From Escherichia phage vB_EcoS_ESCO3, in the sequence record OM386652.1: a stretch of 59,956 nucleotides of DNA; one strand, given 5' to 3'. The position numbers and the translations under genes were made by a program. The stretch's first letter is position 1; the number at the start of each line of letters is the position of its first letter. The notes beneath the pieces are model-generated. The model was not told the origin of the DNA. It was given only the letters and a program-made list of their open reading frames with translations, and searched no databases. Below, piece by piece: positions 3,534 to 30,563 of the stretch.

Positions 3534-3541
3534 AAGTAACC

Positions 3542-4495
3542 TTACTCGTCAAATAAATCCTGGAGACGTTCGTTGAACTTCCCATTGTGGTTAGCAAGAA
3601 TCATAGCGTTGACCACACCATACGCCCATAAATTGTATGCAGCGCGTGATTCGTATATCGTTGAAAGTCGTTCGTATGTGAAACCTGACTCCTCTAAGTA
3701 GCGTAGAACGTTATTCTGTTCTATTTCTGAAAGGTTACAGATATGCTGCCCTTGATAGTGACGTGACGGAGACTTTTCAGACACCTGCATTGGACCCCAC
3801 TTAGGCGTCTCAATAGCACCAAACGCCGCAGATTGGATCCAGGAGGATGAGTCACAGGAGTACCACGGGTAACGCTCCATAAGTGGACGGGACGTAATAC
3901 CAAATCCATGGACTTTAATCTTAGCGCGTCCGCTACCGTCCACAAGGTGTTTATCCCATACCCTGTCCAACCATACTTGAAGTTGCTGCGTACTTGCTCC
4001 AACAAGACCACCGAGCGTAATGTACTCGTAGTTCCGTACATAATGGTCAAGATACTCAAAAGGTTCACCCGCGTGGAAGCATGGTAAAGGTCTTACACCT
4101 CTGGCTTCCATCTCTTCCTGGTTACGCCATGTCTGAAGTGGGTCTCCGATACCATCAAGTACGGACGCCATAAGCGAACCATCCTCTACACGGATGATAT
4201 CTATGTTTCGTTGGATGTAATCACAGTATTCTTTAACTGATAACGTAACTCCCAAAGTGTAAGCTGAGAACGCTCCGGAGTCGAGGAATATCTTGGCCCC
4301 ATCGGCACGCATGGCATCGACATAGGATTGCTTTCCAACATAGTGCCAGGATTCAAGAATGTTTGGAATATTCTCGACAACACGTTTTTCTTGTTCGTTG
4401 AGTTTAACATAGCGGTTCATTCCTGGTTTATAGCTGTTCGTATATACGGCAGCCATATAAATCTGAAAGGTATAGTTGATATCTTGTCTGTGCAT
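3542..4495 (-). CDS. dpdA: DpdA-like DNA-guanine transglycosylase (TGT superfamily)
   Basis: 317 aa. TGT-like motif FLDSGAFS; sits next to folE/queD/queC/queE. ATG at 4495 with an upstream AGGTGA ribosome-binding site on the minus strand. Confidence 0.7.
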   Translation of the reverse strand: MHRQDINYTFQIYMAAVYTNSYKPGMNRYVKLNEQEKRVVENIPNILESWHYVGKQSYVDAMRADGAKIFLDSGAFSAYTLGVTLSVKEYCDYIQRNIDIIRVEDGSLMASVLDGIGDPLQTWRNQEEMEARGVRPLPCFHAGEPFEYLDHYVRNYEYITLGGLVGASTQQLQVWLDRVWDKHLVDGSGRAKIKVHGFGITSRPLMERYPWYSCDSSSWIQSAAFGAIETPKWGPMQVSEKSPSRHYQGQHICNLSEIEQNNVLRYLEESGFTYERLSTIYESRAAYNLWAYGVVNAMILANHNGKFNERLQDLFDE

Positions 4496-8028: not shown

Positions 8029-8793
8029 TCATTCTACACCTAAATATTTGTGAACCTGCAATTGCACGATGTAATTGTGCTTCATTGCATATTTAACGAC
8101 AGCTTGAGCGTTTGCTTTATTAGCATCGTCGTCCTGTTCATCCATAGGTTGAAGATAAATCTTACCTTTAAAGTGTACAGGTGGACGTGCGATAAATGGT
8201 GTCGCACGGTGATCCAGTGCCTGCAACGGTAATCCATCTTCCTCGTTGACGTTTCCGCTTTTCATTACATATTTGAAAGCATCCGCTCGAGCGGAAACGC
8301 TAGGGTGAATCTTTGCTGCCTTAGGACTACATACTACCACACAATTATAGTTGAGTTCACGCGGGATAGGCATAGTTCCGTTAGTCTCAACCTGTACATG
8401 ATATCCTTTCATATCGATAAGGTAGTTGATAAAATTAACAACTTCAGGTTGACGGAAAGGTTCGCCACCAGTAATAACAACTAATTTAGTCTTGGCTTCA
8501 CCAGTGACACGAACAATCTCCTGCCAAATATCACCGTGACTCATCTTCTTACGATTAGACGTATAGTTTGTATCGCAACCTGGGCATTGCAAGTTGCAAC
8601 CAGCTAATCGGACAAATACGGCAGGTTGACCACAAAATGGGCCTTCGCCTTGAATGGTATGAAAAATGGAATGTACGTCAAGAATACCACGTTCACGAAC
8701 TAACTTCTCAGGATCCTGAGTATTAATAATTTTCATATGATTTCCAAATTTGGCTTGAGCCCAGTGGTGGGCGATAATGGCTTGTGCAAACAT
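8029..8793 (-). CDS. queE: 7-carboxy-7-deazaguanine synthase (QueE, radical SAM)
   Basis: Radical-SAM cluster motif FVRLAGCNLQCPGCDT and upstream IQGEGPF. Start placed at the ATG at 8793 (GAGG ribosome-binding site, 5-nt spacer); the track ORF begins at TTG 8817. Confidence 0.8.
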   Translation of the reverse strand: MFAQAIIAHHWAQAKFGNHMKIINTQDPEKLVRERGILDVHSIFHTIQGEGPFCGQPAVFVRLAGCNLQCPGCDTNYTSNRKKMSHGDIWQEIVRVTGEAKTKLVVITGGEPFRQPEVVNFINYLIDMKGYHVQVETNGTMPIPRELNYNCVVVCSPKAAKIHPSVSARADAFKYVMKSGNVNEEDGLPLQALDHRATPFIARPPVHFKGKIYLQPMDEQDDDANKANAQAVVKYAMKHNYIVQLQVHKYLGVE

Positions 8794-8861: not shown

Positions 8862-9686
8862 TTACTCTGCAGATTTCTGAGACGGAATTTCTACGTTAGC
8901 GGCCGCCTGTGCAATATTAGCAGGTACTGGAACTGATACGCGACCAGTAATGCCCATGTATTTCTTCCAGCGAGCGTATTCCGCTTTGACGTTCGCTTCG
9001 TTCAGGCCTTTGTCCAGTGCAACCGGAAGAACGTAGCTGATCGGTGCAGTCTGGCCCAGCTCCAGTGTGACAGCGTCAAAGATATCCCATGCAGCACGGC
9101 ACAGAGTGCCAACACCAGGCTTACGAATACCATTCTGTTCCGGCTCTTTCTTAGCTTCACGTTCTGCCGCTTTACGAGCGCGCTCTTCGTCTTGCAGACG
9201 TTTCTTCTCAGCGCGTTCTGCGTCACGTTGCGCTTTTTCAGCGGCTTTAGTGGCTTCGCGGGCAGCGGATACACGACCTTTAACATCTTTCAAAGTGGAT
9301 TCAATACCAGAAACCAGATCTTCAGATGCTGTAACGGCAGTTTTCAGTTGATCGTTGTCTTTAACTTTACGTGCTGCCGCTTTAACAGCTTTCAGACCTT
9401 CTTTAGCGGTCTTCAGTTGAGCGGTAACTACACCTTCAACTGCTTTAACTTCGTCCAGCAACGAACCTTCGTTCAGGGTCGCGAACTGTTCTTTAACAGC
9501 GGACACAGCACCTTCGATTACATTGTAACCGGCAGTAGCTTCGTTCATTGCCGCGTCAACTTTAGCCTGCAATTCACGTGCTGCTTTTTCTTCAGCTTCA
9601 CGTTTTTTCTTTGCTTCAGCTTCTTTTGCTGCTTTCTTTGCTGCTTCTTCTGCTTCCAGTTGCTCTGGAGTTTTCTCTTTAGCCAT
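8862..9686 (-). CDS. hypothetical protein, Lys/Ala/Glu-rich coiled-coil
   Basis: 274 aa. Highly charged alpha-helical N-terminal two thirds, globular C-terminus. No catalytic motif recognised. Confidence 0.5.
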   Translation of the reverse strand: MAKEKTPEQLEAEEAAKKAAKEAEAKKKREAEEKAARELQAKVDAAMNEATAGYNVIEGAVSAVKEQFATLNEGSLLDEVKAVEGVVTAQLKTAKEGLKAVKAAARKVKDNDQLKTAVTASEDLVSGIESTLKDVKGRVSAAREATKAAEKAQRDAERAEKKRLQDEERARKAAEREAKKEPEQNGIRKPGVGTLCRAAWDIFDAVTLELGQTAPISYVLPVALDKGLNEANVKAEYARWKKYMGITGRVSVPVPANIAQAAANVEIPSQKSAE

Positions 9687-9781: not shown

Positions 9782-10504
9782 TTAATTTAAGCCACGTTCT
9801 TTTACCCAGACCCCTAATGTATTACTTGATGTATTGCGCTTCACACCTTGTGCCTCTAAACGATCCATCATTTGTTTTCTAAGCTGAAGGATTTCCTTCT
9901 TGTCACGAGGTTCACCAGCTTCTTTCCACATTTCGTCAGCAACAGCGAAAATAATATCGCGAGTGCCGGCTGTACGCGACGTTGCGGCACGTTTTTCGTT
10001 TGCCGGTGTGCTAGCACCTTGCCGCTCTTTTGTCGGTGTCCATGCCCCTTGTATGCCCATATTTGTTTGTATGGTTGGGCCGCCAATGATGGTGGGTTCC
10101 AATGAACTATCATTCCGTACTTGAATATTAGGCTCCTCCCCCAAATCTGGAACAGAGCTGCCTTCGCGGTACATGAACTCACCCTCTTTATTACTAGCAA
10201 TTGCCCAGTCCGCTTGTTCAGCCACATCCGCATCTATTACTGTCTCCGGTATTTCATTTAAAAAGTAATGAATGATCTTACTGATCATTTTCTTTGGATA
10301 TAAAGCACCTTGCTTATTACCCGTTAAGTGGATGTACAAAAGTTGCATTTGCACATCATCAAACTCTTTATACAGTTCTTCAACTTCTAACGGAAGAACT
10401 ACAGAACTTTCACTACAGCATAGAATTCCATACTCATGAAGACGCTGGAAGTTTGGATGCTTGGCTAATACCTGCATCCGATCGTAATCAATTAAGACGT
10501 ACAT
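9782..10504 (-). CDS. hypothetical protein
   Basis: Start placed at the internal ATG at 10504 (MYVLIDYDRM), which abuts the upstream gene stop at 10506. The track ORF extends to 10582. Confidence 0.45.
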   Translation of the reverse strand: MYVLIDYDRMQVLAKHPNFQRLHEYGILCCSESSVVLPLEVEELYKEFDDVQMQLLYIHLTGNKQGALYPKKMISKIIHYFLNEIPETVIDADVAEQADWAIASNKEGEFMYREGSSVPDLGEEPNIQVRNDSSLEPTIIGGPTIQTNMGIQGAWTPTKERQGASTPANEKRAATSRTAGTRDIIFAVADEMWKEAGEPRDKKEILQLRKQMMDRLEAQGVKRNTSSNTLGVWVKERGLN

Positions 10505-10798: not shown

Positions 10799-12757
10799 TT
10801 ACCAGTAAGAATAGGTTGATNAGNNGNANAANNGNAATACTGTCGTACGGGAATCAGTCTGCTCATCTTCATCAAACTTATTCGTATAACTGCCACCAAA
10901 CTGGGACAGACCATTCATTGCTGCAATTTGTACAACCGGACGTTCGTTTGTTGCTTCTTTCTTACCGAACTCACTACCGTCATAACAACTATTCAACACT
11001 TCGGGGAACTTACCCTTCAAGTTGACATAAATGTGCGTCGGTACACGAAGCTGGCTGACCACATTGAGGGCTTCGTCAATGTTAGCTGGGATTGCCAAGC
11101 TGCAATGCTCGCGCCACCAGTTACGCGCTTTCTTACCTGCAAAGCCAGTATGGAACAGGCAGATGTATTGTTGAATAGTTTGTGAGCCACAAAGATAATC
11201 AACACGAAGTGTCGGTGGCTTAGAACGGTCACCCCTGTTCTCGTGACGATAGTAACTCACCATATCAACTTTCAACACTTCAGTAACTGGTAAATCATTC
11301 TTGATAATAGCTTTCGTACTTGCACTCGCCATCAGTTTCTTCTCAAAAGTAAACTCATGACCGCAATAACCAGCACGACACGCTTTATTATTTGTAATGG
11401 TATAACCTAATCCTTGTAGATAGAGTATTTCTTCATGAGACATGCTGCTTGTGTCGAATGGTTTTAACCCACCACAGTAGCGAACTGACGCATGGTTCCA
11501 TGTCTTACATACCGGGCATTCTTTGACAGGTGCAGCGGATTTTCCTTTCTGTCCTGGACGCTTAGGAATTACAGGGTCGTTAATAGGCCCAAGACGTCTC
11601 GTATTGCCTGCGTAATCCAATACAAGACAGTTCTGTTTGTGCGAAGCCGAGATAGCTTGCAAACGACCTTCCGTTGTGGTCAGATCAAAACCATCAGCAT
11701 AATCAGGTCGAGTACCACGTCCAAGCATTTGAACCCATAGGCGGGAAGATTGAGACGGTCGCATACCAATTATTAAGTCAAGACCCGGATGGTCAAAACC
11801 TGTCGTTAATACGTTGTTGTTCGCTATTGCCTGCAAACGACCAGCTTTAAAGTCAATAAGGTACTGGTCACGCAAGGCTTTCGGTGTATCACCAGTTACA
11901 ACTTCACAACTAATACCGCGCTCATTGAGATAGTCTTTGACATCTTTTGCATGGTCTACACCAGCGCAAAAGATAAGCCAACTCATTCTATTCTCTTCTT
12001 CCGCAATACTAATTGCATCATCTAATAAATGGCGCGTTACATCAGGGTCATTTACAACCTTCTGAAGTTCACTTTCAATGAACTCACCGCCTCGAGTATG
12101 AACACCACTTACATCATACTCTTTCTTTGTTTTACGTGGTACTAACGGAACCAGATAACCTTCATCAATGAACCAGTTGAAGCACTCTACGGTACACGCG
12201 TTAAATACAATTTCATCAAATAGAGCGTTAGGTGCATAATCATCCTTGATAATAGAACCAAAACCAAGACGCCAACTTGTAGCAGTGAGACCGATAATCT
12301 TTAGATATGGATTCTTTTCACGAATCTGCGCAAAGAACTTCTGATAACTTGTTTGCTGATTTGGACTAATAAGGTCACATTCGTCAACTATAATAATATC
12401 AACGTCCTCAAAGTATTTAGCTTGTTTTGCAACAGACTGAATACCTGCGAACGTTATCATTGCGTTCTTATCTTTGCGACCCATACCAGCACTATAAATA
12501 CCAGTCGGTGCTTCAGGCCACAACTTCTTGAATTTATCGTGGTTCTGGTCTATCAATTCTTTTACGTGAGTAATTACCATCATGCGGGTACTACCCCAAT
12601 TATCATGAATTGTCTTTAATAGACCAGCAATTACAAGGGACTTACCAGTCCCTGTAGGCAACAAGATAACAGGATTTCCTGACTTTTCACCATGCTTGAT
12701 GAAATAGCGCAATGTACTATTTACAGCTTCTTGCTGATAATCACGTAGTTTGAACAT
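10799..12757 (-). CDS. SF2 DNA helicase (DEAD/DEAH-box type) with C-terminal Cys-rich region
   Basis: 652 aa. Walker A LLPTGTGKS, DExD box IIVDECDL, arginine finger QMLGRGTRP. The 3' end of the gene spans ambiguous bases (N at 10821-10835), so the C-terminus is uncertain. Confidence 0.7.
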   Translation of the reverse strand: MFKLRDYQQEAVNSTLRYFIKHGEKSGNPVILLPTGTGKSLVIAGLLKTIHDNWGSTRMMVITHVKELIDQNHDKFKKLWPEAPTGIYSAGMGRKDKNAMITFAGIQSVAKQAKYFEDVDIIIVDECDLISPNQQTSYQKFFAQIREKNPYLKIIGLTATSWRLGFGSIIKDDYAPNALFDEIVFNACTVECFNWFIDEGYLVPLVPRKTKKEYDVSGVHTRGGEFIESELQKVVNDPDVTRHLLDDAISIAEEENRMSWLIFCAGVDHAKDVKDYLNERGISCEVVTGDTPKALRDQYLIDFKAGRLQAIANNNVLTTGFDHPGLDLIIGMRPSQSSRLWVQMLGRGTRPDYADGFDLTTTEGRLQAISASHKQNCLVLDYAGNTRRLGPINDPVIPKRPGQKGKSAAPVKECPVCKTWNHASVRYCGGLKPFDTSSMSHEEILYLQGLGYTITNNKACRAGYCGHEFTFEKKLMASASTKAIIKNDLPVTEVLKVDMVSYYRHENRGDRSKPPTLRVDYLCGSQTIQQYICLFHTGFAGKKARNWWREHCSLAIPANIDEALNVVSQLRVPTHIYVNLKGKFPEVLNSCYDGSEFGKKEATNERPVVQIAAMNGLSQFGGSYTNKFDEDEQTDSRTTVXXXXXXSTYSYW

Positions 12758-13708
12758 TTACTCACCGTAATAATCTGCTGCTTCGTATTGACCACATGCT
12801 GCCATCTGATCTTCCTTCGTTAATACACCTTCTGTTCCATCGGTAATGTATGCAGTAGCAGAAGCCACTTTGATTGCACATCTCCACGTTCCGTCTTCAA
12901 GCGGGTATGAGTGCTTACAGGTGCGGCAGTTAACTTCAGGCATTTTGTTGTTGTGGCATACCGCTTTGTGGTCACACCATTTGCATTTATAGTAAGATTT
13001 ACTTTCATTGAGTTTAGGTGGTGGGCATTCTGCCAGTGCAATCACAAATCCACGGTCTTTGTAGCGTTCTGCGGTTTCTTTATCAAACGGCACAAGCTCT
13101 GCCCAGATCTCGTCCGTGTTCTTATTAACTGCAATATAAAGAGCGGCTGGGAGCCCATAGTACAACATGTATTCCTGCATCTGAACATAGTGCTCCCATT
13201 TGGATTCCATCACACCATTAACGACAAGTTTCTTGAACGAATCATTATTGTGCGTTTTCATCTCCGTTAAGATTGGTGTAGAAGGTTGTGGCATGTCAGG
13301 GCAACCAATGACAATACCATCTATCGCGGAGCCAAAGTGCCCGTTGAGATAGCTAACTCGATACTGGCTGCCATTTTCGTCTTGTTGGATGACTTGCATA
13401 CCGGCAGTAAGTAATAAGGCCACGAAGCGACCTTCTTCAAGATGCCCGCGATTGAATAGACGTAAGGTCTTACCGTTAAAGCGTGGTTTTGTTGCCCATC
13501 GCCATCCGTAGAAAATTGCTCTGCTACACTCTTGCCCGATAAGACTAATCCCAAGATGCGAACGGAATCCACCATCTCCCTCTCGATATGCGTCTTCAAT
13601 ATGCGGTAATACTTTTCCGAGCCATACTCTGTAAGCGGATCCTTGATCTCGTTCAATACACTCATTGAATAACTCCATTGTCTTAGTAGCAGGATAAAAA
13701 TGTGGCAT
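12758..13708 (-). CDS. PD-(D/E)xK exonuclease, Cas4/RecB-like with 4-Cys cluster
   Basis: 316 aa. Nuclease core AIDGIVIG...ILTEMKT (D...E.K) plus Cys at GQECS and C-terminal CKWCDHKAVC, compatible with an Fe-S Cas4/RecB-family exonuclease. Confidence 0.5.
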   Translation of the reverse strand: MPHFYPATKTMELFNECIERDQGSAYRVWLGKVLPHIEDAYREGDGGFRSHLGISLIGQECSRAIFYGWRWATKPRFNGKTLRLFNRGHLEEGRFVALLLTAGMQVIQQDENGSQYRVSYLNGHFGSAIDGIVIGCPDMPQPSTPILTEMKTHNNDSFKKLVVNGVMESKWEHYVQMQEYMLYYGLPAALYIAVNKNTDEIWAELVPFDKETAERYKDRGFVIALAECPPPKLNESKSYYKCKWCDHKAVCHNNKMPEVNCRTCKHSYPLEDGTWRCAIKVASATAYITDGTEGVLTKEDQMAACGQYEAADYYGE

Positions 13709-13770
13709 ATCATAATCCTATATAGAAAAATAAAGCTCCCGGAGGAGCTTTATTATAACATGATTTTTAA

Positions 13771-14685
13771 TTACTGTGCAGCGTCATCGCCTTCAGTGGA
13801 ACGTTTCCACGGTGGAGTCTTGGTCTGAGCTGCTTTAGCGATATCGTCCTGGACTTCAGGTTCTGCATGGTTAGCAGTACCAGTGTTTTGAGCTTGAGTT
13901 TGCGGTTGCTCTGCTCCAGGCTGTACCTGCTGAGTTGCCCAGTTAGGTTGCTGCGTCTGCTGCGGCTGCTGCGCACCAGTAGCCCACGGTTGGGATTGTG
14001 CCGCGCTGTTAAAATCAACTGTTCCAGACTGCTGCTGTTGCTGTACCGGCTGCTGCGGCTGTTGTTGCTGCTGCGGTTGCTGGAACCCCTGAGTCTGAGG
14101 TTGTTGCTGCGGCTGCTGCGGCTGCTGCCCAAATGCGCCCGGGAAACCCTGCTGCGGCTGCTGCTGTTGCTGCTGAGCACCACCGAACGCACCGCCACCA
14201 AATGCTGGAGATTGTGCTGCCGCTGCCGGAGTTGATTTAGGCAGGTTAGCCATATCCGCCTTAGTTGCGTATACAACACCTTCCATGTTATCAATTGCTT
14301 GATAAATCTGAGGTTCGTTGTTTGGCTCATAGCCAGGTTGCTGACGAACTTTCACTTTCAGGTTAAACGGAATACCGTGCAGTTGTTCAGTATCGTTCCA
14401 AACTGGAACTTTAACAGCACGGGACAGCTCTGCCAGTTCTTCCATTGCAATCTGTACAGCGACAGGGTTCGCGTTCTTGACGTTGTAACCGCCAAACATC
14501 ACACGACCAGCAAAATCACCCTGCATGATCTTAAACTGAAGATTCAGACGCGCACCGCCTGGAGTTTTAGTCGGTTTGATTTCAGAGTTTACAATCTGAA
14601 CAACATACCAACCAGCGGGCATCAAGCTGTTGTGTTGACGCTCTGCGTGCTGTCCAGCGTTAAATTGCATTCCTAAACCGGCCAT
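13771..14685 (-). CDS. putative ssDNA-binding/annealing partner protein with Gln-rich low-complexity C-terminus
   Basis: 304 aa. Globular N-terminal domain, then a long Q/P/G-rich tract. Lies immediately downstream of the Sak4-like ATPase, a position often held by an SSB-like partner. Confidence 0.4.
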   Translation of the reverse strand: MAGLGMQFNAGQHAERQHNSLMPAGWYVVQIVNSEIKPTKTPGGARLNLQFKIMQGDFAGRVMFGGYNVKNANPVAVQIAMEELAELSRAVKVPVWNDTEQLHGIPFNLKVKVRQQPGYEPNNEPQIYQAIDNMEGVVYATKADMANLPKSTPAAAAQSPAFGGGAFGGAQQQQQQPQQGFPGAFGQQPQQPQQQPQTQGFQQPQQQQQPQQPVQQQQQSGTVDFNSAAQSQPWATGAQQPQQTQQPNWATQQVQPGAEQPQTQAQNTGTANHAEPEVQDDIAKAAQTKTPPWKRSTEGDDAAQ

Positions 14686-25995: not shown

Positions 25996-26613
25996 TTACG
26001 CTCCAAACTGATCAATGTATTCAATGAGTTCTTGCAATTCTTGCTGTAACTGCACATTACCACTATTATTCGTCTGAAGTCTAACGAGGCGTTCTTTGAT
26101 ATGTGTAATGTGGTTAGCACCCATCCGACGCTTCTGTACATCACACCAATGAACAACACCATCTTCAATATATGCACGACGCGCTTTACCACGCGGGTAT
26201 CGCAACGGCCTAATCTCGCACTTATCGTCCACCCACTTAAAGCCCAGGATCATAACACCGTTGCCTTCCGTATCAGGGCACACGTCAAAGCAACTGTTGA
26301 ACCCTTTACTGCGCATGTACTCGTCGAGCGGAATTACCTTATCGGGCGACAACCATTGATACCCGAAGTAAATGTCAACAGTGAACATCATCCCCAACAT
26401 CGGAGCCGACCAGCACATATACACTCGCCCGTCATCCAACTTCTTGACCGCATTCGGCCGCAGCACGAGGCCAGCCGCCTTCCACGCTTTGACCACATTA
26501 ATTGTGTTGTCCTGCTCTTGGAATATTGCGTCTGCTTGCATATATGTAGGCGCGTCCCAGCCAAACATTTCCTTTACATGAGCATTAGTGATTTCAACCC
26601 TTTGATTGCGCAT
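25996..26613 (-). CDS. hypothetical protein (first gene downstream of the large non-coding region)
   Basis: Start placed at the internal ATG at 26613 (MRNQRVEIT). The track ORF's N-terminal extension runs into AT-rich repeat DNA and is unlikely to be coding. Confidence 0.45.
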   Translation of the reverse strand: MRNQRVEITNAHVKEMFGWDAPTYMQADAIFQEQDNTINVVKAWKAAGLVLRPNAVKKLDDGRVYMCWSAPMLGMMFTVDIYFGYQWLSPDKVIPLDEYMRSKGFNSCFDVCPDTEGNGVMILGFKWVDDKCEIRPLRYPRGKARRAYIEDGVVHWCDVQKRRMGANHITHIKERLVRLQTNNSGNVQLQQELQELIEYIDQFGA

Positions 26614-27589
26614 AACCTCACCCTTGATAATAATAAATCGACTGATTTTGAAATTCAGTTGCCGGTTTATGTTTATTTTTACGCAGTGTGTTTTGCAATG
26701 CAATATTGATATATTTTGTCTTTGTATTGCAATGTTTTTGTATTGCAAAAATTACAACAGTCTGAAGGTGAGAAATTGTACATTTATAAAGATCGGTGAA
26801 AAAATGCACAATTTATAAAGATGCCGCAACATACGAAACGGCGAAGCGAAGTGTATGAAAAATAAGGGAAAATTTTGAGGATTGGGAGGTTTGTATGGGT
26901 TTATATTATTTATAAAGGGGTCCCGTAGGGGTCGTCAGTAGACAACTCAAAAACAAAAAATCTTTATAAAATTTATATAAATACACACATACACACACTT
27001 TTACCTTATTTTTCATGCACTTACCCCCTTTCATTTCGTACATTAAGCGACTATATATGAGCAATATGACATATATTTGTTGCGCAACGACTGTGTGTTT
27101 TCTAACCAATCGAAAGATTGCTTTATATACGTCCGCGCGTCTAACACAAAAGAAAAGTGGATTGCAAGCGATTTTTGCTGAGGTAACTCTCGAAGTGAAA
27201 GCGATTTGCGAGTTTGAAATTTTGTAGCCCGAAAACGATTCTATTTTATGGTATAAATGTCGGATTTTTCGGTGAAAGCGAGCTTTTTGGTGAGGTTGGG
27301 TGGCTGGGAACGGTGTAACTGGTAGCCCATAAAGCGAAAATAGCCGCGAAAACGGGGCACGCAGCGCGATTAAATGGTTGGATCAGTGTAAGGGTGGCGG
27401 TGAGGGGCGAAAATGCCGCAAAATCGCTTACAGGGATGCAGGGAGTGGATCGCTGTAAGGGCGTATAAGGCGATTAAATTGGAGTCTATGGTAATGTATG
27501 GAAGAAGGATTCAGGTTCTTAGAGCGCGAATGGTGGAGCTATGGGTGAGGAATATGTGGTCAGCAGGGTAGCGCGGGAGGTGGTGCGGG
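26614..27589. promoter_or_regulatory. large non-coding control region with multiple short direct repeats
   Basis: About 1 kb with no ORF of 60 aa or more in the track. Direct repeats TTTGTATTGCAA (26721-26732, 26737-26748), ATTTATAAAGAT (26782-26793, 26811-26822; further TTTATAAA copies near 26907 and 26961), GCGATTAAAT (about 27365 and 27470) and TGTAAGGG (twice). Plus strand is strongly purine-rich from about 27280 to 27600. Confidence 0.5.
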
Positions 27590-27629
27590 TACAAAAACGA
27601 AAGCGCCCCGTTGGACTTCAACAGGGCGC
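27590..27629 (-). terminator. rho-independent terminator for the leftward early operon
   Basis: Inverted repeat GCGCCCCGTTG / CAACAGGGCGC (one mismatch), which on the minus-strand transcript is followed by UUUCGUUUUUGU. Lies just downstream of the stop of gene 27653..27901. Confidence 0.65.
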
Positions 27630-27652
27630 GGACTGTATAATGCAGTTAGAAG

Positions 27653-27901
27653 TTATTTACTAGTTAATAATACCGCCCAGGTATTATCTGGAAGCGTACC
27701 AACTCCAAGTATCTTAAACTGAAGTGACTTGTTTTGTATGTTGTAGTTGTCGAGTAACTCCTGGGCAGCGGCAGCGGCGTTCGCTTCACCGCTCAGGTTG
27801 TAGTCGTTTGCAGTTATTGCACACATACCGAGGCCGACTGCTTTGAAGCGCATACCTTTGGATTGAGTCGGTGCCAGTGCTTTGACATGGATAGCGTTCA
27901 T
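27653..27901 (-). CDS. hypothetical small early protein (family B, copy 1)
   Basis: 82 aa. Paralogous to 28431..28676: both share a central AAA.EL segment and a C-terminal G..LPD motif. Confidence 0.45.
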   Translation of the reverse strand: MNAIHVKALAPTQSKGMRFKAVGLGMCAITANDYNLSGEANAAAAAQELLDNYNIQNKSLQFKILGVGTLPDNTWAVLLTSK

Positions 27902-27930
27902 ATTATTTATCTCCGTTACAATTTGAAAGG

Positions 27931-28188
27931 TTAGCAGTTTTTTAACATGTTAATGAAGCCCGCCAGCGTGGACGCTGTTGCAACCAGGCGACCCATAGTA
28001 TGCAGTTCGGCGTGAACTTTACCGTCGTCGAATACAGTTAAATAAACGTTAAGACCATTGCAACGGACGCGATATTTGCGCGAGTTATTATCGAAAGTTT
28101 CTAGCTCTGCGGTGATAGTCGCAAGATTAGCTATACGTTTGCCGATAATGCGGCGAGTGATAGTGGACTGGTTTAATACTGTAGACAT
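27931..28188 (-). CDS. hypothetical small early protein (family A, copy 1)
   Basis: 85 aa. N-terminal motif STITRRIIGKRIANL is shared with 29502..29807 (SQITKRIIGKRLHQL). Confidence 0.45.
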   Translation of the reverse strand: MSTVLNQSTITRRIIGKRIANLATITAELETFDNNSRKYRVRCNGLNVYLTVFDDGKVHAELHTMGRLVATASTLAGFINMLKNC

Positions 28189-28430
28189 AATAATTTCCTC
28201 TGTTAACTATGCGAAGTGCATATTATTGCCCACTGTTACTATGGGCAATGTATATGTCACTCAGCGGACACATATTCTAACGCTTCTGATAGTGTAGCGA
28301 AGTGACCATCACTCATCAGATTAATAGCGTACTCAAGTTGATCTCGGGTCAGGTTGCGAAACTTGTTGCGGATGTGATAGCAACGACCGCGATAAATAAC
28401 CTGGAAATAATTGCGTTCCATAATTATCCC

Positions 28431-28676
28431 TTAAGCAACGATGAACGCATAACCGCTTTGATCCGGGAGCTCACCGCCGGCAACAATCTCAAATTCAACG
28501 CCCGCTTTATCGTTGAACTTTTTGATAAGCTCTTCCGCTGCGGCGCGGTGGTTGCCGTAAACACCCAAATCGTCACGCCATGTGATAGTCAAGGAGCCGT
28601 TCCAGCCTGTTGCTTTTACGCGCGGGGCGCGAGCGGCAGTCGGGTTCATGAATTTTGTGATGATAGCTTGAGCCAT
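28431..28676 (-). CDS. hypothetical small early protein (family B, copy 2)
   Basis: 81 aa; paralog of 27653..27901. Confidence 0.45.
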   Translation of the reverse strand: MAQAIITKFMNPTAARAPRVKATGWNGSLTITWRDDLGVYGNHRAAAEELIKKFNDKAGVEFEIVAGGELPDQSGYAFIVA

Positions 28677-28681
28677 GATAA

Positions 28682-28900
28682 TTACTCCGGTAAAATTACA
28701 GTGACGTTAATATTTGCAATGCGAGCGCACTCGCGGAAACCTTTTACATAAGCATCCATTTCATCATAGGATGCGAAAGTTGCGTCCGGGACTGGTCCGT
28801 TGTTAATATTCACACAATATTCGTGTTCGTCCAGGTCTACCCAACAATTCAGAACTATAGTTCCCATATTATTTGCCCTCCGTATAGTACAGACCCGCAA
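28682..28900 (-). CDS. hypothetical protein
   Basis: 72-aa ORF. Confidence 0.4.
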   Translation of the reverse strand: MRVCTIRRANNMGTIVLNCWVDLDEHEYCVNINNGPVPDATFASYDEMDAYVKGFRECARIANINVTVILPE

Positions 28901-28945
28901 CTATTGGAGCTCCGAATACCAAGAACGCTAATAAGTAGAACATAA

Positions 28946-29425
28946 TTAGTTGCCCCCTTTATTGTTGAGCCCGTTGAATTTACGCCATGCGTAGAATTCA
29001 ATCGTTGCATTATTAATATTCCAACCATTAGCTTTCGCAAGGTCACGGACGTTACCAATAGTTGGCACACCATCAGGCAACATATTATCCAGAGCGTTCC
29101 AAACGTCTGCGCATTTACCTTTAATCGGACGACGAACCCCGTTGCGCGTTTCGCTGCGCGCCTTGCTCTTGGCGGGAGCGACCGGAGCTTGTTGTGTGGT
29201 CACTTCCACGACAGTCGCTTTATCAGCTTCGACCAGATCGTTGGCTGCCTTATTAACCGCGCCTTCGCTGAACCAGTAGCGGCCACCGTCTTCCATCGGC
29301 TCCTGGTGAATAAAGCTATTTGCTGTCGCTGTGTCTACGTCCAGAACCTTTTTCAAGGCACGGCGAGCGTTAGACATGTTGGTGAAAAAGCGAGCATCTT
29401 TCGCTACGCGAGTGATAGTTGCCAT
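28946..29425 (-). CDS. hypothetical early protein
   Basis: Start placed at the internal ATG at 29425 (MATITRVAK); the track ORF starts at 29440. Confidence 0.45.
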   Translation of the reverse strand: MATITRVAKDARFFTNMSNARRALKKVLDVDTATANSFIHQEPMEDGGRYWFSEGAVNKAANDLVEADKATVVEVTTQQAPVAPAKSKARSETRNGVRRPIKGKCADVWNALDNMLPDGVPTIGNVRDLAKANGWNINNATIEFYAWRKFNGLNNKGGN

Positions 29426-29501
29426 TGTAAATATCTCCATGTTGTTCTAGCGGATTGCTAGTGGGAGCCCACTGTGACAATGGGCAACCATTAGCACGCT
29501 A

Positions 29502-29807
29502 TTATTGTTGAATAGCTTTAGCTATCATTGTGATGAAGCAGAACACAGACCAAANGCTATTCGCTTGGCATACTGGGCGACCATACATTACGCTATAAGA
29601 GCTGACAGTGCCGTCTTCGTTAATGCGAACGTATAACGCGGTGCTGGAATATTTTTCGTTGCCCGGGAGCATTACCAGATACTCATCGAAATCCCAATCC
29701 CCGTCAACCTTTTCCGCTGTAAGGCCCAGCTGATGCAGGCGCTTGCCGATAATGCGCTTAGTAATCTGAGATTGGGACATGGAACGCGGTAAGTAGATAA
29801 TGGACAT
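29502..29807 (-). CDS. hypothetical small early protein (family A, copy 2)
   Basis: Start placed at the ATG at 29807 (MSIIYLPRS) with a GGGAG ribosome-binding site; the track ORF extends to 29861. Contains one ambiguous base (N at 29565). Confidence 0.45.
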   Translation of the reverse strand: MSIIYLPRSMSQSQITKRIIGKRLHQLGLTAEKVDGDWDFDEYLVMLPGNEKYSSTALYVRINEDGTVSSYSVMYGRPVCQANSXWSVFCFITMIAKAIQQ

Positions 29808-29882
29808 AATGCAATCTCCCTTCGGGTGAGGCGGGCGCGGAACCCGTGTCCCGCTTAACAACCCCCTTTACCCTACGCATTT

Positions 29883-29911
29883 ATAGTATGACAACAGGGT
29901 ATCAGATGCAA
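29883..29911 (-). promoter_or_regulatory. candidate sigma70-type early promoter (leftward)
   Basis: On the minus strand: -35 TTGCAT (29906-29911), 17-nt spacer, -10 TACTAT (29883-29888). Sits about 70 bp upstream of the first leftward gene. Confidence 0.4.
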
Positions 29912-29996
29912 CTATTATCTGCATTATTTTAGAACTTTTTTAGTTGTATTTCATAATAATAACATCCGGGACTATGTGGTAGATGGTGTGCCGGAA

Positions 29997-30059
29997 ATAC
30001 CAGGTAGCGCGAGCGTGCTGAAAATACCAGGTAACAGCACGCGCCGAACATACCAGGTA
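29997..30059. repeat. three direct repeats ATACCAGGTA (iteron-like)
   Basis: Copies at 29997-30006, 30024-30033 and 30050-30059, spaced 26-27 bp. The middle copy sits in the loop of the inverted repeat GCGTGCTG / CAGCACGC. Confidence 0.5.
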
Positions 30060-30177
30060 GCACATACATAAACAGCACATAGTGGGCAGGTCGATAGTAA
30101 CAGATGCAATTATACTGGACGGTACAGTATAGTCATGTAATAGATAGCATACTAATCAAATAAAAAATAATAACGCG

Positions 30178-30199
30178 TGTAACAATAAACAACGTTACA
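30178..30199. promoter_or_regulatory. palindromic operator-like site TGTAAC-N10-GTTACA
   Basis: Perfect 6-bp inverted-repeat half-sites; additional GTAACA half-sites nearby (30030-30240). A second TGTAAC-N6-GTTACA palindrome occurs at 57904-57921. Confidence 0.35.
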
Positions 30200-30362
30200 G
30201 TAGAGTACGCAACAGTCACATGACGTAACAATCACCTCACTGACGATCACTGGACGTTATAGTAACGCCGCGGGGCGGCTCTTAGATCTCTGCCAAGGAT
30301 TCATCGTTTGTAGATTATCTCGTCACTAGACACTTTATATCCTCACCTCACCTGCCCTATAT

Positions 30363-30391
30363 TGTTCGTATAGAATTAATTCCGTATATAA
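30363..30391 (+). promoter_or_regulatory. candidate sigma70-type promoter (rightward)
   Basis: -35 TTGTTC, 17-nt spacer, -10 TATATA; about 170 bp upstream of the first rightward gene. Confidence 0.3.
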
Positions 30392-30563
30392 ATACTCGAG
30401 ATCAGATTTACAAGATTCGGTTTCCTGTATGTGTAACTGATTTGCCGCACAAGATTTAAAGCACACGAGACAGCTAACTGTGGTTATTAATTGTTGCGGC
30501 CGGCTATGTTAATCAACTTGCGTATCCTGTTATAGTTATTCCGTTAACGTTAAAGGGGTTTAT

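Follow-up and report, generated by a model that had tools for sequence, protein, structure and literature searches.

The stretch analysed here (the window) comprises 59,956 nt of the genome of Escherichia phage vB_EcoS_ESCO3 (OM386652.1), a Nonagvirus of the phage 9g group within the Queuovirinae. We focus on positions 26614-27652, a non-coding region of 1,039 nt flanked by two genes on the minus strand, referred to here as geneL and geneR:

25996-26613, minus strand (ATG at 26613): geneL, 205 aa, the first gene of a leftward replication operon.
27653-27901, minus strand: geneR, 82 aa, the last of about eight small genes running leftward from a divergent promoter region near 30 kb.

Together with that divergent promoter region (30081-30563 in our scan), the region makes up the two largest stretches of the window that are free of open reading frames (ORFs). 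Comparison with relatives whose ends are mapped shows that it contains, by homology, the inner boundary of a direct terminal repeat (DTR) and with it one physical end of the packaged DNA. We consider it probable that the whole is a composite cis-acting DTR junction, serving both end formation and the temporal separation of transcription.

Full-length alignments to the region were obtained for 17 phage records, all of them Nonagvirus and 85-94% identical, including HdSG1, HdK1, JenK1, FritzHoffmann, BRET, ChristophMerian, 9g, JenP1/2, SP8, PD328 and SE1. Two of these, HdSG1 and HdK1, each matched the query twice, with 94% and 92% identity across the region. In their GenBank records the first 3363 bp and 3367 bp, respectively, are exactly duplicated at the record end, and both assemblies had been linearised by the depositors at abrupt read ends (PMC6563267, section 2.10). 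On the numbering of the window, the repeat starts at 26909 (HdSG1, whose record opens TTTATAAAGGGG...) or 26912 (HdK1), and its right edge is 30281 in both (...GCCGCGGGGCGGCTC|TTAGATCT, the cut falling after 30281). Kulikov et al. found a read-start hot spot at position 28,243 of 9g, and inferred from it a physical end and a terminal repeat of unknown size (PMC4276943). Position 28,243 of 9g is the same phosphodiester bond as window 30281|30282. The edge sequences of both boundaries are identical in the window of vB_EcoS_ESCO3. With the inner edge at 26909, 744 nt of the region therefore lie within the 3.36-kb DTR and 295 nt beyond it, and both DTR edges fall within the two largest ORF-free stretches of the genome. 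Moreover, HdSG1 and HdK1, both German phages, have left ends within 3 nt of each other and the same base at the right end, despite a difference of 460 bp in unique length. This coincidence favours sequence-specific ends over headful cutting or an assembly overlap.

The first-pass annotation of this DNA, made by a reader of the sequence alone, had correctly described a non-coding region with a terminator and with a promoter/operator zone among its candidate roles, which fits the left part. It missed the DTR boundary (26909/26912), which was not visible to such a reader. Further support for direct terminal repeats comes from phage Iggy, of a Pseudomonas lineage that terminase phylogeny places with the Queuovirinae: its DTR has been mapped, although this 1.1-kb repeat is organised differently and does not offer a comparable junction. 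A contig end inside the gap (L030; L numbers are our labels for relatives) tells nothing about ends, the sequence at that point being mosaic.

A nested inverted repeat surrounds the left end. This structure and the sites closest to the two ends are as follows:

26849-27022: nested inverted repeat, capable of forming a cruciform or hairpin; outer arms 26849-26882 and 26989-27022, 34 nt, 82% complementary.
26902-26917 and 26962-26977: inner arms, TATATTATTTATAAAG and CTTTATAAAATTTATA.
26909: third copy of TTTATAAAG, with an inverted copy at 26962-26970.
26932-26947, plus strand: TCGTCAGTAGACAACT, 23 nt inside the left end.
30320-30335, plus strand (the same strand as TCGTCAGTAGACAACT): TCGTCACTAGACACTT, 38 nt beyond the right end.

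The third TTTATAAAG copy has its 5′ edge at position 26909. Six occurrences of this motif in the window compare with an expectation of 0.76, and four of them are packed into 26783-26970, less than 190 nt. Folded as single-stranded DNA, 26845-27026 yields -27.1 kcal/mol (z = -4.79), a stability equalled by none of 200 shuffles. The nested inverted repeat encloses an AT-rich segment, and an 82%-AT stretch (26956-27015), which ranks third among the least stable 60-mers of the genome, overlaps its right arm. The 12-mer CGTCAGTAGACA begins 24 nt inside the left DTR end and has its counterpart 39 nt beyond the right one, TCGTCACTAGACACTT being the sole match to TCGTCAGTAGACAACT in the window at up to one mismatch. 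Klebsiella-type relatives retain CGTCAGTAGACA at their right-boundary region despite diverged flanks, and phages of the SE1/PD328/SP8 type carry an additional TTATAAA..CGTCAGTAGACA copy in a variable island of the region (27046-27145). On this sequence evidence, TCGTCAGTAGACAACT/TCGTCACTAGACACTT is a candidate end-recognition motif.

The second largest ORF-free stretch (29862-30563), which holds the other DTR end, has divergent promoter-like sites and repeats of its own: ATACCAGGTA occurs three times at 26-27-nt spacing (29987-30062), and GTAnCAGATGCAAyTAT twice (29899, 30097). In some relatives, genes for HNH-type homing endonucleases lie beside the two DTR boundary regions (L031, 3747-4220; HdK1 record, 3536-4015).

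Conservation was scored as mean pairwise column identity in an alignment of 17 distinct Nonagvirus sequences spanning geneL, the gap and geneR. The gap scores 0.894, compared with 0.92, 0.94 and 0.825 for the three codon positions of geneL and 0.86, 0.93 and 0.76 for those of geneR, and no 3-nt periodicity was found in it. Blocks 26746-26870, 26871-27045, 27146-27280 and 27281-27600 score 0.92-0.93 (27281-27600: 0.92). Within them, 26796-26820 reaches 0.99 and 27221-27245 is 100% identical in all 17 genomes. The stretch at about 26671-26720 is variable and rich in insertions and deletions (indels), as is one further segment:

27046-27145: hypervariable island, identity 0.69, many indels.

The gap matches codon positions 1 and 2 of its flanking genes in conservation and shows no periodicity; purifying selection therefore acts on most of the kilobase as non-coding sequence, which excludes filler everywhere except 27046-27145. 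Judged from this alignment, the region is functional DNA or RNA. The first-pass annotation had reported no ORF of at least 60 aa in any frame. As a count this does not stand: once GTG and TTG starts are admitted, the region is overlapped by four ORFs of 63-70 aa (one of them, 27015-27227 on the plus strand, begins with ATG), but none of the four is coding. Only 2-7 of the 17 relatives keep them intact, and changes are not enriched at their third codon positions. By comparison, variable columns at position 3 number 105 in geneL and 53 in geneR, against 35-56 and 19-28, respectively, at positions 1-2. Annotations of related genomes place differing small ORFs in the region, or none. A search of 5,426 Escherichia coli genomes for a host-derived origin of the region gave zero matches.

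In JenP1 (L007) the equivalent of 27423-27652, the right 230 nt, has been swapped together with geneR for a divergent version, with 78% of the query covered and a geneR that is 65% identical. These divergent parts suggest mosaic exchange within the terminal repeat.

Read in the direction of transcription, the junction opens with the intrinsic terminator of the eight repeat-borne early genes. The elements concerned with transcription are:

27593-27629, minus strand: intrinsic terminator, GCGCCCTGTTGAAGTCCAACGGGGCGC then TTTCGTTTTT, 24 nt past the geneR stop codon.
27630-27652, plus strand: spacer TGTATAATGCAGTTAGA between the geneR stop codon and the terminator, with a perfect TATAAT at 27636-27641.
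26802 to 26775, minus strand: candidate leftward sigma-70 promoter, TTTTCA-16-TACAAT, overlapping the tandem 28-29-nt units described below.
26811 to 26783, minus strand: candidate leftward sigma-70 promoter, TTGTGC-17-TATAAA, read by eye.

The terminator hairpin proposed at first pass for the leftward operon was borne out: it runs on the minus strand from 27629 to 27603, with 11 pairs, 8 of them G-C, and a T tail. The records of HdSG1, HdK1 and SP8 list a terminator at this site, and its stem is kept with changed bases in L003 (K9PH25C2, of the Klebsiella type) and in L028. The spacer TGTATAATGCAGTTAGA is conserved in Nonagvirus, the Klebsiella-type phages and L028, and differs in L031; its TATAAT is part of a promoter-like TGGACT-18-TATAAT on the plus strand (10/12 matches). 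RNA reading on through the terminator would be C-rich and G-poor: the minus-strand RNA of 27600 to 27280 has 38.6% C and 13.7% G and is untranslated, the most extreme such stretch of the genome. Rho-utilisation (rut) sites, at which Rho loads, are C-rich, G-poor untranslated RNA, 80 nt or longer, located downstream of a stop codon. By composition the readthrough RNA thus resembles a rut site.

Upstream, the DTR carries its approximately eight tiny genes (27653-29861), all of which match only PHROGs of unknown function and none of which has a Pfam family. They include two paralogous pairs, 27653-27901 with 28431-28676 (PHROG 3199) and 27931-28188 with 29502-29861 (PHROG 13865). About 150 nt inside the right DTR end lies a leftward promoter-like ATGACT-16-TATAAT (30136 to 30109), which reads inward over the eight small genes toward the terminator. 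These genes are likely to be the first expressed. Ambiguous bases (N) occur in the window at 10821-10835 and at 29555, the latter within the small repeat-borne ORF 29502-29861.

On the other side, the geneL operon continues into genes for an AEP-primase/helicase (the AEP-primase/DUF3987 protein), a helicase, a ligase and queuosine-pathway proteins. The only homologues of geneL are close ones (at least 70% identity); Pfam and the PDB gave no match to it, and no informative structural neighbour emerged for its AlphaFold model (predicted local distance difference test score, pLDDT, 70).

The direct repeats that the first-pass annotation had listed were all recovered where it had placed them, and its (AC)n-like tract was likewise found at 26985-27000. 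From left to right, the repeats and composition features of the region are:

26717-26748: two tandem copies of TGT(C/T)TTTGTATTGCAA, with a related TGTTTTGCAATG at 26689.
26689-26700, 26717-26732 and 26733-26748: TTGCAA-type palindromic repeats within 26614-26766 (minus strand), the upstream or leader region of geneL.
26691-26703 and 26738-26750: inverted arms upstream of geneL.
26767-26823: two tandem, invariant 28-29-nt units, GGTGArAA..TGyACA.TTTATAAAGAT, each terminating in ATTTATAAAGAT.
26782-26793 and 26811-26822: ATTTATAAAGAT.
27166, 27199 and 27422: three copies of AAGCGATT, the first two in the conserved core described below and the third inverted, in the G-rich block.
27280-27600, plus strand: G-rich, C-poor block holding two copies of GCGATTAAAT, two of TGGATCnnTGTAAGGG and one inverted AAGCGATT.
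27366 and 27470: GCGATTAAAT, found nowhere else in the genome.
27387 and 27454: TGTAAGGG, part of the 16-mer TGGATCnnTGTAAGGG (two copies).

Repeated 10-mers give nine extra copies in the region, whereas 500 dinucleotide shuffles average 1.03 and never reach nine. The repeat families have 2-4 copies each at irregular spacing. A 9-nt tandem repeat elsewhere in the window, CGGCTGCTG (about nine copies, 60% matches, 14047-14128), lies inside ORF 13771-14685 (a DUF669 protein) and explains at least part of the top repeated-10-mer count per 1-kb window (13508-14546). The purine-rich strand bias noted at first pass was also verified: 27280-27600 contains 38.6% G, 13.7% C and 65% purine, and its GC skew of +0.47 is the maximum among all 320-nt windows of the genome. 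There are no canonical G-quadruplex motifs in the region, and two-tetrad candidates occur as its G content predicts. The TTGCAA-type palindromes in the geneL leader are candidate operators.

A syntenic gap of 1.1-1.5 kb is present in Klebsiella-infecting Queuovirinae (K9PH25C2, Kpn2-P2), in Ec1-ASingh and in several metagenomic contigs. Between these phages and Nonagvirus the following elements are compared:

27159-27258: cross-genus core, GGATTrCAAGCGATwwTTG ... TTTTTGTrG..C.AAAACGATTCTATTTTAT, of which 27159-27249 is the shared part.
27249-27258: TGGTATAAAT, which follows the core in Nonagvirus, is invariant in 17 genomes and resembles a plus-strand extended -10 element.

The core is probably a protein-binding site. 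Beyond it, the spacer TGTATAATGCAGTTAGA, the terminator and some scattered islands recur in the distant relatives; the L003 equivalent of 27280-27600 is also G-rich (by eye). A search with the core pattern of viral and metagenome collections gave new matches only in the four lineages already seen, and the other matches (candidates L038, L042, L048, L051, L045 and L050) were rejected as chance occurrences in coding DNA. Repeats at equivalent positions are lineage-specific. Where Nonagvirus has TTGCAA-type palindromes at the geneL leader, L003 has the palindrome TATAGCnnGCTATA twice and the metagenomic relative L031 has AATCGCGAT three times along with four related TCGCGA-core sites. Directly right of the core, L003 carries eight 15-nt GCTAA-core units (4130-4250), as do L004 and L049. 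Two such units are present in L028 and none in Nonagvirus or L031. This lineage-specific array may bind a protein or serve as an origin.

We propose that a single junction unites three functions: it terminates the early operon, forms a DNA end and houses the promoters and operators of the replication operon. The packaging machinery would recognise a module made up of the nested inverted repeat (26849-27022), TCGTCAGTAGACA (26932) and the TTTATAAAG copies, and would cut it to give the end at 26909; this module may also aid duplication of the repeat during concatemer processing, for example via a hairpin or cruciform. The terminator and the rut-like 320 nt that follow it would act as a transcriptional barrier between the repeat-borne immediate-early genes and the replication genes. 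The regulated promoter of the replication operon would lie in the leftmost 200 nt, where the two 29-nt units and the TTGCAA palindromes are found. The promoter/operator role suggested at first pass is supported for these left ~200 nt, which resemble such a zone for the next leftward operon.

Several observations weigh against a composite junction. The ends were mapped in relatives (about 92-95% identical) and inferred for this phage; the left end is defined by two records from one laboratory, 3 nt apart, and the authors of the 9g study detected the right end only (PMC4276943). Any link between these motifs and the terminase is a candidate one, and a match such as that between TCGTCAGTAGACAACT and TCGTCACTAGACACTT arises in 11% of random pairs of 161-nt windows (p ~0.11). 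As the pairing is not significant by itself we treat it as a lead, backed by its conservation across lineages. Klebsiella-type relatives lack TTTATAAAG and have CGTCAGTAGACA at the right boundary only, so that the proposed end module is not universal. Substitutions in the arms of the nested inverted repeat are uncompensated among relatives, and the symmetry is therefore more likely to be read by proteins or used only transiently than to be kept as a stable structure. The promoters are consensus matches, of which the scan finds 4 where 3.2 are expected by chance. Lastly, the most conserved part of the region (27146-27600) lies 240-690 nt from the end, and a composite junction does not explain its role.

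The region might instead be purely transcriptional punctuation, consisting of the intrinsic terminator, a Rho-dependent back-up, a regulated middle promoter and perhaps antitermination, with the DTR edge merely tolerated in non-coding DNA. The terminator is indeed present, the most rut-like untranslated stretch of the genome follows immediately downstream, and promoter-like sites and lineage-specific palindromes lie upstream of geneL. However, 1 kb conserved like codon positions 1 and 2 is more than a promoter, a rut site and a terminator call for, and punctuation accounts neither for the nested inverted repeat around the end, nor for the TTTATAAAG cluster exactly at the cut, nor for the motif common to the other DTR end. 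We regard this explanation as unlikely.

A replication origin, which the first-pass annotation had named as a candidate role, would involve iteron-like repeats bound by the AEP-primase/helicase or another initiator, melting of the AT-rich 26883-27015, and a start just upstream of the replication genes. Consistent with this are the eight GCTAA repeats adjoining the conserved core in Klebsiella-type relatives, the AT-rich segment of low stability, the position of the region at the head of an operon with primase, helicase and ligase genes, and a minimum of cumulative GC skew at 26-27 kb. However, there is no regular iteron array (at least 3-4 direct repeats) in this lineage, GCTAA copy number ranging from 0 to 8 among relatives, and the AT-rich segment is only third in the ranking of unstable 60-mers. 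Searches of the region for DnaA boxes (TTWTNCACA, TTWTNNACA), Chi and IHF consensus sites found none, and the whole window holds a single consensus DnaA box. When the cumulative skew was checked, its minimum proved to be a broad plateau (27-30 kb) that is mostly explained by gene orientation together with the G-rich block, and GC skew is thus uninformative on an origin. Any connection between the repeats and a replication protein is a hypothetical one. Taken together, these data make an origin quite unlikely.

By analogy with phage T5, the region could also be the equivalent of an injection stop: the terminal repeat would enter first, transfer would pause at the region whilst the eight small genes are expressed, and would then resume. 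The layout is T5-like, with inward-reading promoters near the outer end, small genes and terminator(s), followed by some 1 kb of untranslated, conserved palindromes and repeats lying across the inner edge. Moreover, the untranslated region is well conserved in both systems, and HNH endonuclease genes occur in or beside the non-coding regions of relatives, as in T5. Set against this, a distant blastn search found no similarity to T5, the region has no DnaA boxes, no repeat-borne protein has a match to Pfam or to a PHROG of annotated function, and two-step transfer has never been reported in 9g-like phages. We find such a stop very unlikely.

Lastly, the region could yield a non-coding RNA: a G/A-rich plus-strand transcript from TGGTATAAAT (a sponge or antisense to the early operon), a primer in an R-loop, or a structured minus-strand leader. 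TGGTATAAAT is invariant in 17 genomes, the extreme strand bias is apparently common to Klebsiella-type relatives, the perfect plus-strand TATAAT in the spacer is conserved, and about a dozen GGA triplets were counted by eye, including UUACAGGGAUGC, which resembles the CsrA-binding consensus. However, the GGA count is what base composition predicts, the extended -10 element in TGGTATAAAT is not conserved in other lineages, the plus strand has no terminator and canonical G-quadruplex motifs are absent. An Rfam scan, bearing on the structured RNA that the first pass had considered, gave no family at gathering score and, at E<=5, only spurious matches to microRNA hairpins; the region contains no transfer or transfer-messenger RNA. 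Folding of 27140-27652 gave z values of -1.6 and -1.7 for the two strands, terminator hairpin included, and in an alignment fold of 17 genomes 4 of 135 predicted pairs covary, with a covariation term of -2.4 kcal/mol. An RNA product is in our view highly improbable. That the region is a non-functional spacer or hypervariable filler, the outcome that the first-pass annotation had named as refuting it, is hardly credible at all: it would fit 27046-27145 and 26671-26720, but the remainder is conserved at 0.92-0.95, far above codon position 3 of the flanking genes, and its blocks are common to phages of another host genus at ~71% identity.

A literature search found no paper describing this region in Queuovirinae. 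Nonagvirus phages are widely isolated, are represented in the BASEL collection and have been studied for their deazaguanine DNA modification, and most of their genome records are arbitrarily linearised. Identifying the largest non-coding stretch as a DTR junction would show where the genome truly ends and which genes it carries twice, and singles out the eight small genes of the repeat as a likely host-takeover set that is expressed first. A composite junction would also offer a compact 60-kb system for studying how long terminal repeats are cut and duplicated, and a route to the role of conserved repeat regions at DTR boundaries, a question open for T5 after decades. For phage engineers, it cautions against this "empty" kilobase as an insertion site.

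Three known systems invite comparison. Concatemer junctions of T7 and T3, and arrays of short repeats flanking the T7 terminal repeat, were reportedly described by Dunn and Studier in 1983 and by Chung, Nardone and Hinkle in 1990. An inverted repeat near the T7 junction has been proposed to act as a hairpin intermediate in repeat duplication. The T7 system shares with the present one DTR packaging with sequence-defined ends, short repeats in non-coding DNA beside the edges, early promoters near one end reading inward and an early terminator. It differs in that its repeat is 160 bp and free of genes, and in having its own RNA polymerase, whose pausing at the junction participates in processing. 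Iteron-type origins include lambda ori and the ori/crr of P4, which is bound by the alpha primase-helicase. The likeness lies in clustered short direct repeats by an AT-rich segment near replication genes, and in the AEP-primase/helicase fusion encoded here; the difference is that a regular array of eight 15-nt repeats exists only in Klebsiella-type relatives and not in this lineage.

The closest resemblance is in layout, to the boundary region of T5. In T5 (AY587007) the series of small pre-early ORFs runs out at 8657. Rho-independent terminators stand at 8903 and 9196, ahead of dense palindromes, inverted repeats and nine 15-nt direct repeats; the DTR ends at 10139, still within untranslated DNA, and the next gene starts at 10856. 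Davison describes this Repeat Region 3 as 1.2 kb long, mostly inside the repeat with an overrun of 270 bp, and situated near an HNH insertion; its conservation is reported to exceed by far that of most terminal-repeat ORFs, and it is named as the probable or proposed site of the injection stop signal; T5-like phages have paired DnaA boxes in inverted repeats there, eight in most, which in Davison's view are central (bioRxiv 10.1101/866236). In both phages an untranslated stretch of ~1-2 kb lies across the inner DTR edge, with an overrun of 270 bp in T5 and 295 nt here, and comes right after the rho-independent terminator(s) of small early genes in the repeat, whose transcription runs toward that edge. 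HNH endonuclease insertions occur nearby in relatives and, in T5, between repeat regions 1 and 2. Both repeats include a short, strongly G-skewed block, and both untranslated regions are well conserved, the present one at least as well as the adjacent ORFs.

The two differ in that no T5-like sequence matches this region in the distant blastn search and that the DnaA boxes are peculiar to T5. T5 has a 10-kb repeat and the present phage, a 60-kb siphovirus belonging to a different family, one of 3.4 kb; the next downstream genes are co-oriented here and convergent in T5, and the G-rich strand is oppositely oriented relative to early transcription. No repeat-borne protein here was identified as A1, A2 or dmp via PHROG or Pfam, no direct comparison having been made. 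A 10-mer, AAATCCGACA (27258-27267, minus strand), lies in the most conserved block of the region and is shared with T5 direct repeat D, TGTGCAAATCCGACA, of which nine copies straddle the end of the T5 terminal repeat (AY587007 9672-10409). We judged this match to be probably due to chance because the position varies (GACA/GGCA) among Nonagvirus genomes. Given a shared layout without shared sequence, DnaA boxes or A1/A2/dmp, we liken the two regions in layout and do not file them as homologues. It would be decidedly unlikely that the 9g-like phages are small siphoviruses with a T5-style programme, in which the DTR enters first, transfer or transcription is held at the junction during the action of the eight tiny repeat-borne proteins, and the junction itself later directs end formation, the arrangement having arisen convergently and without DnaA boxes.

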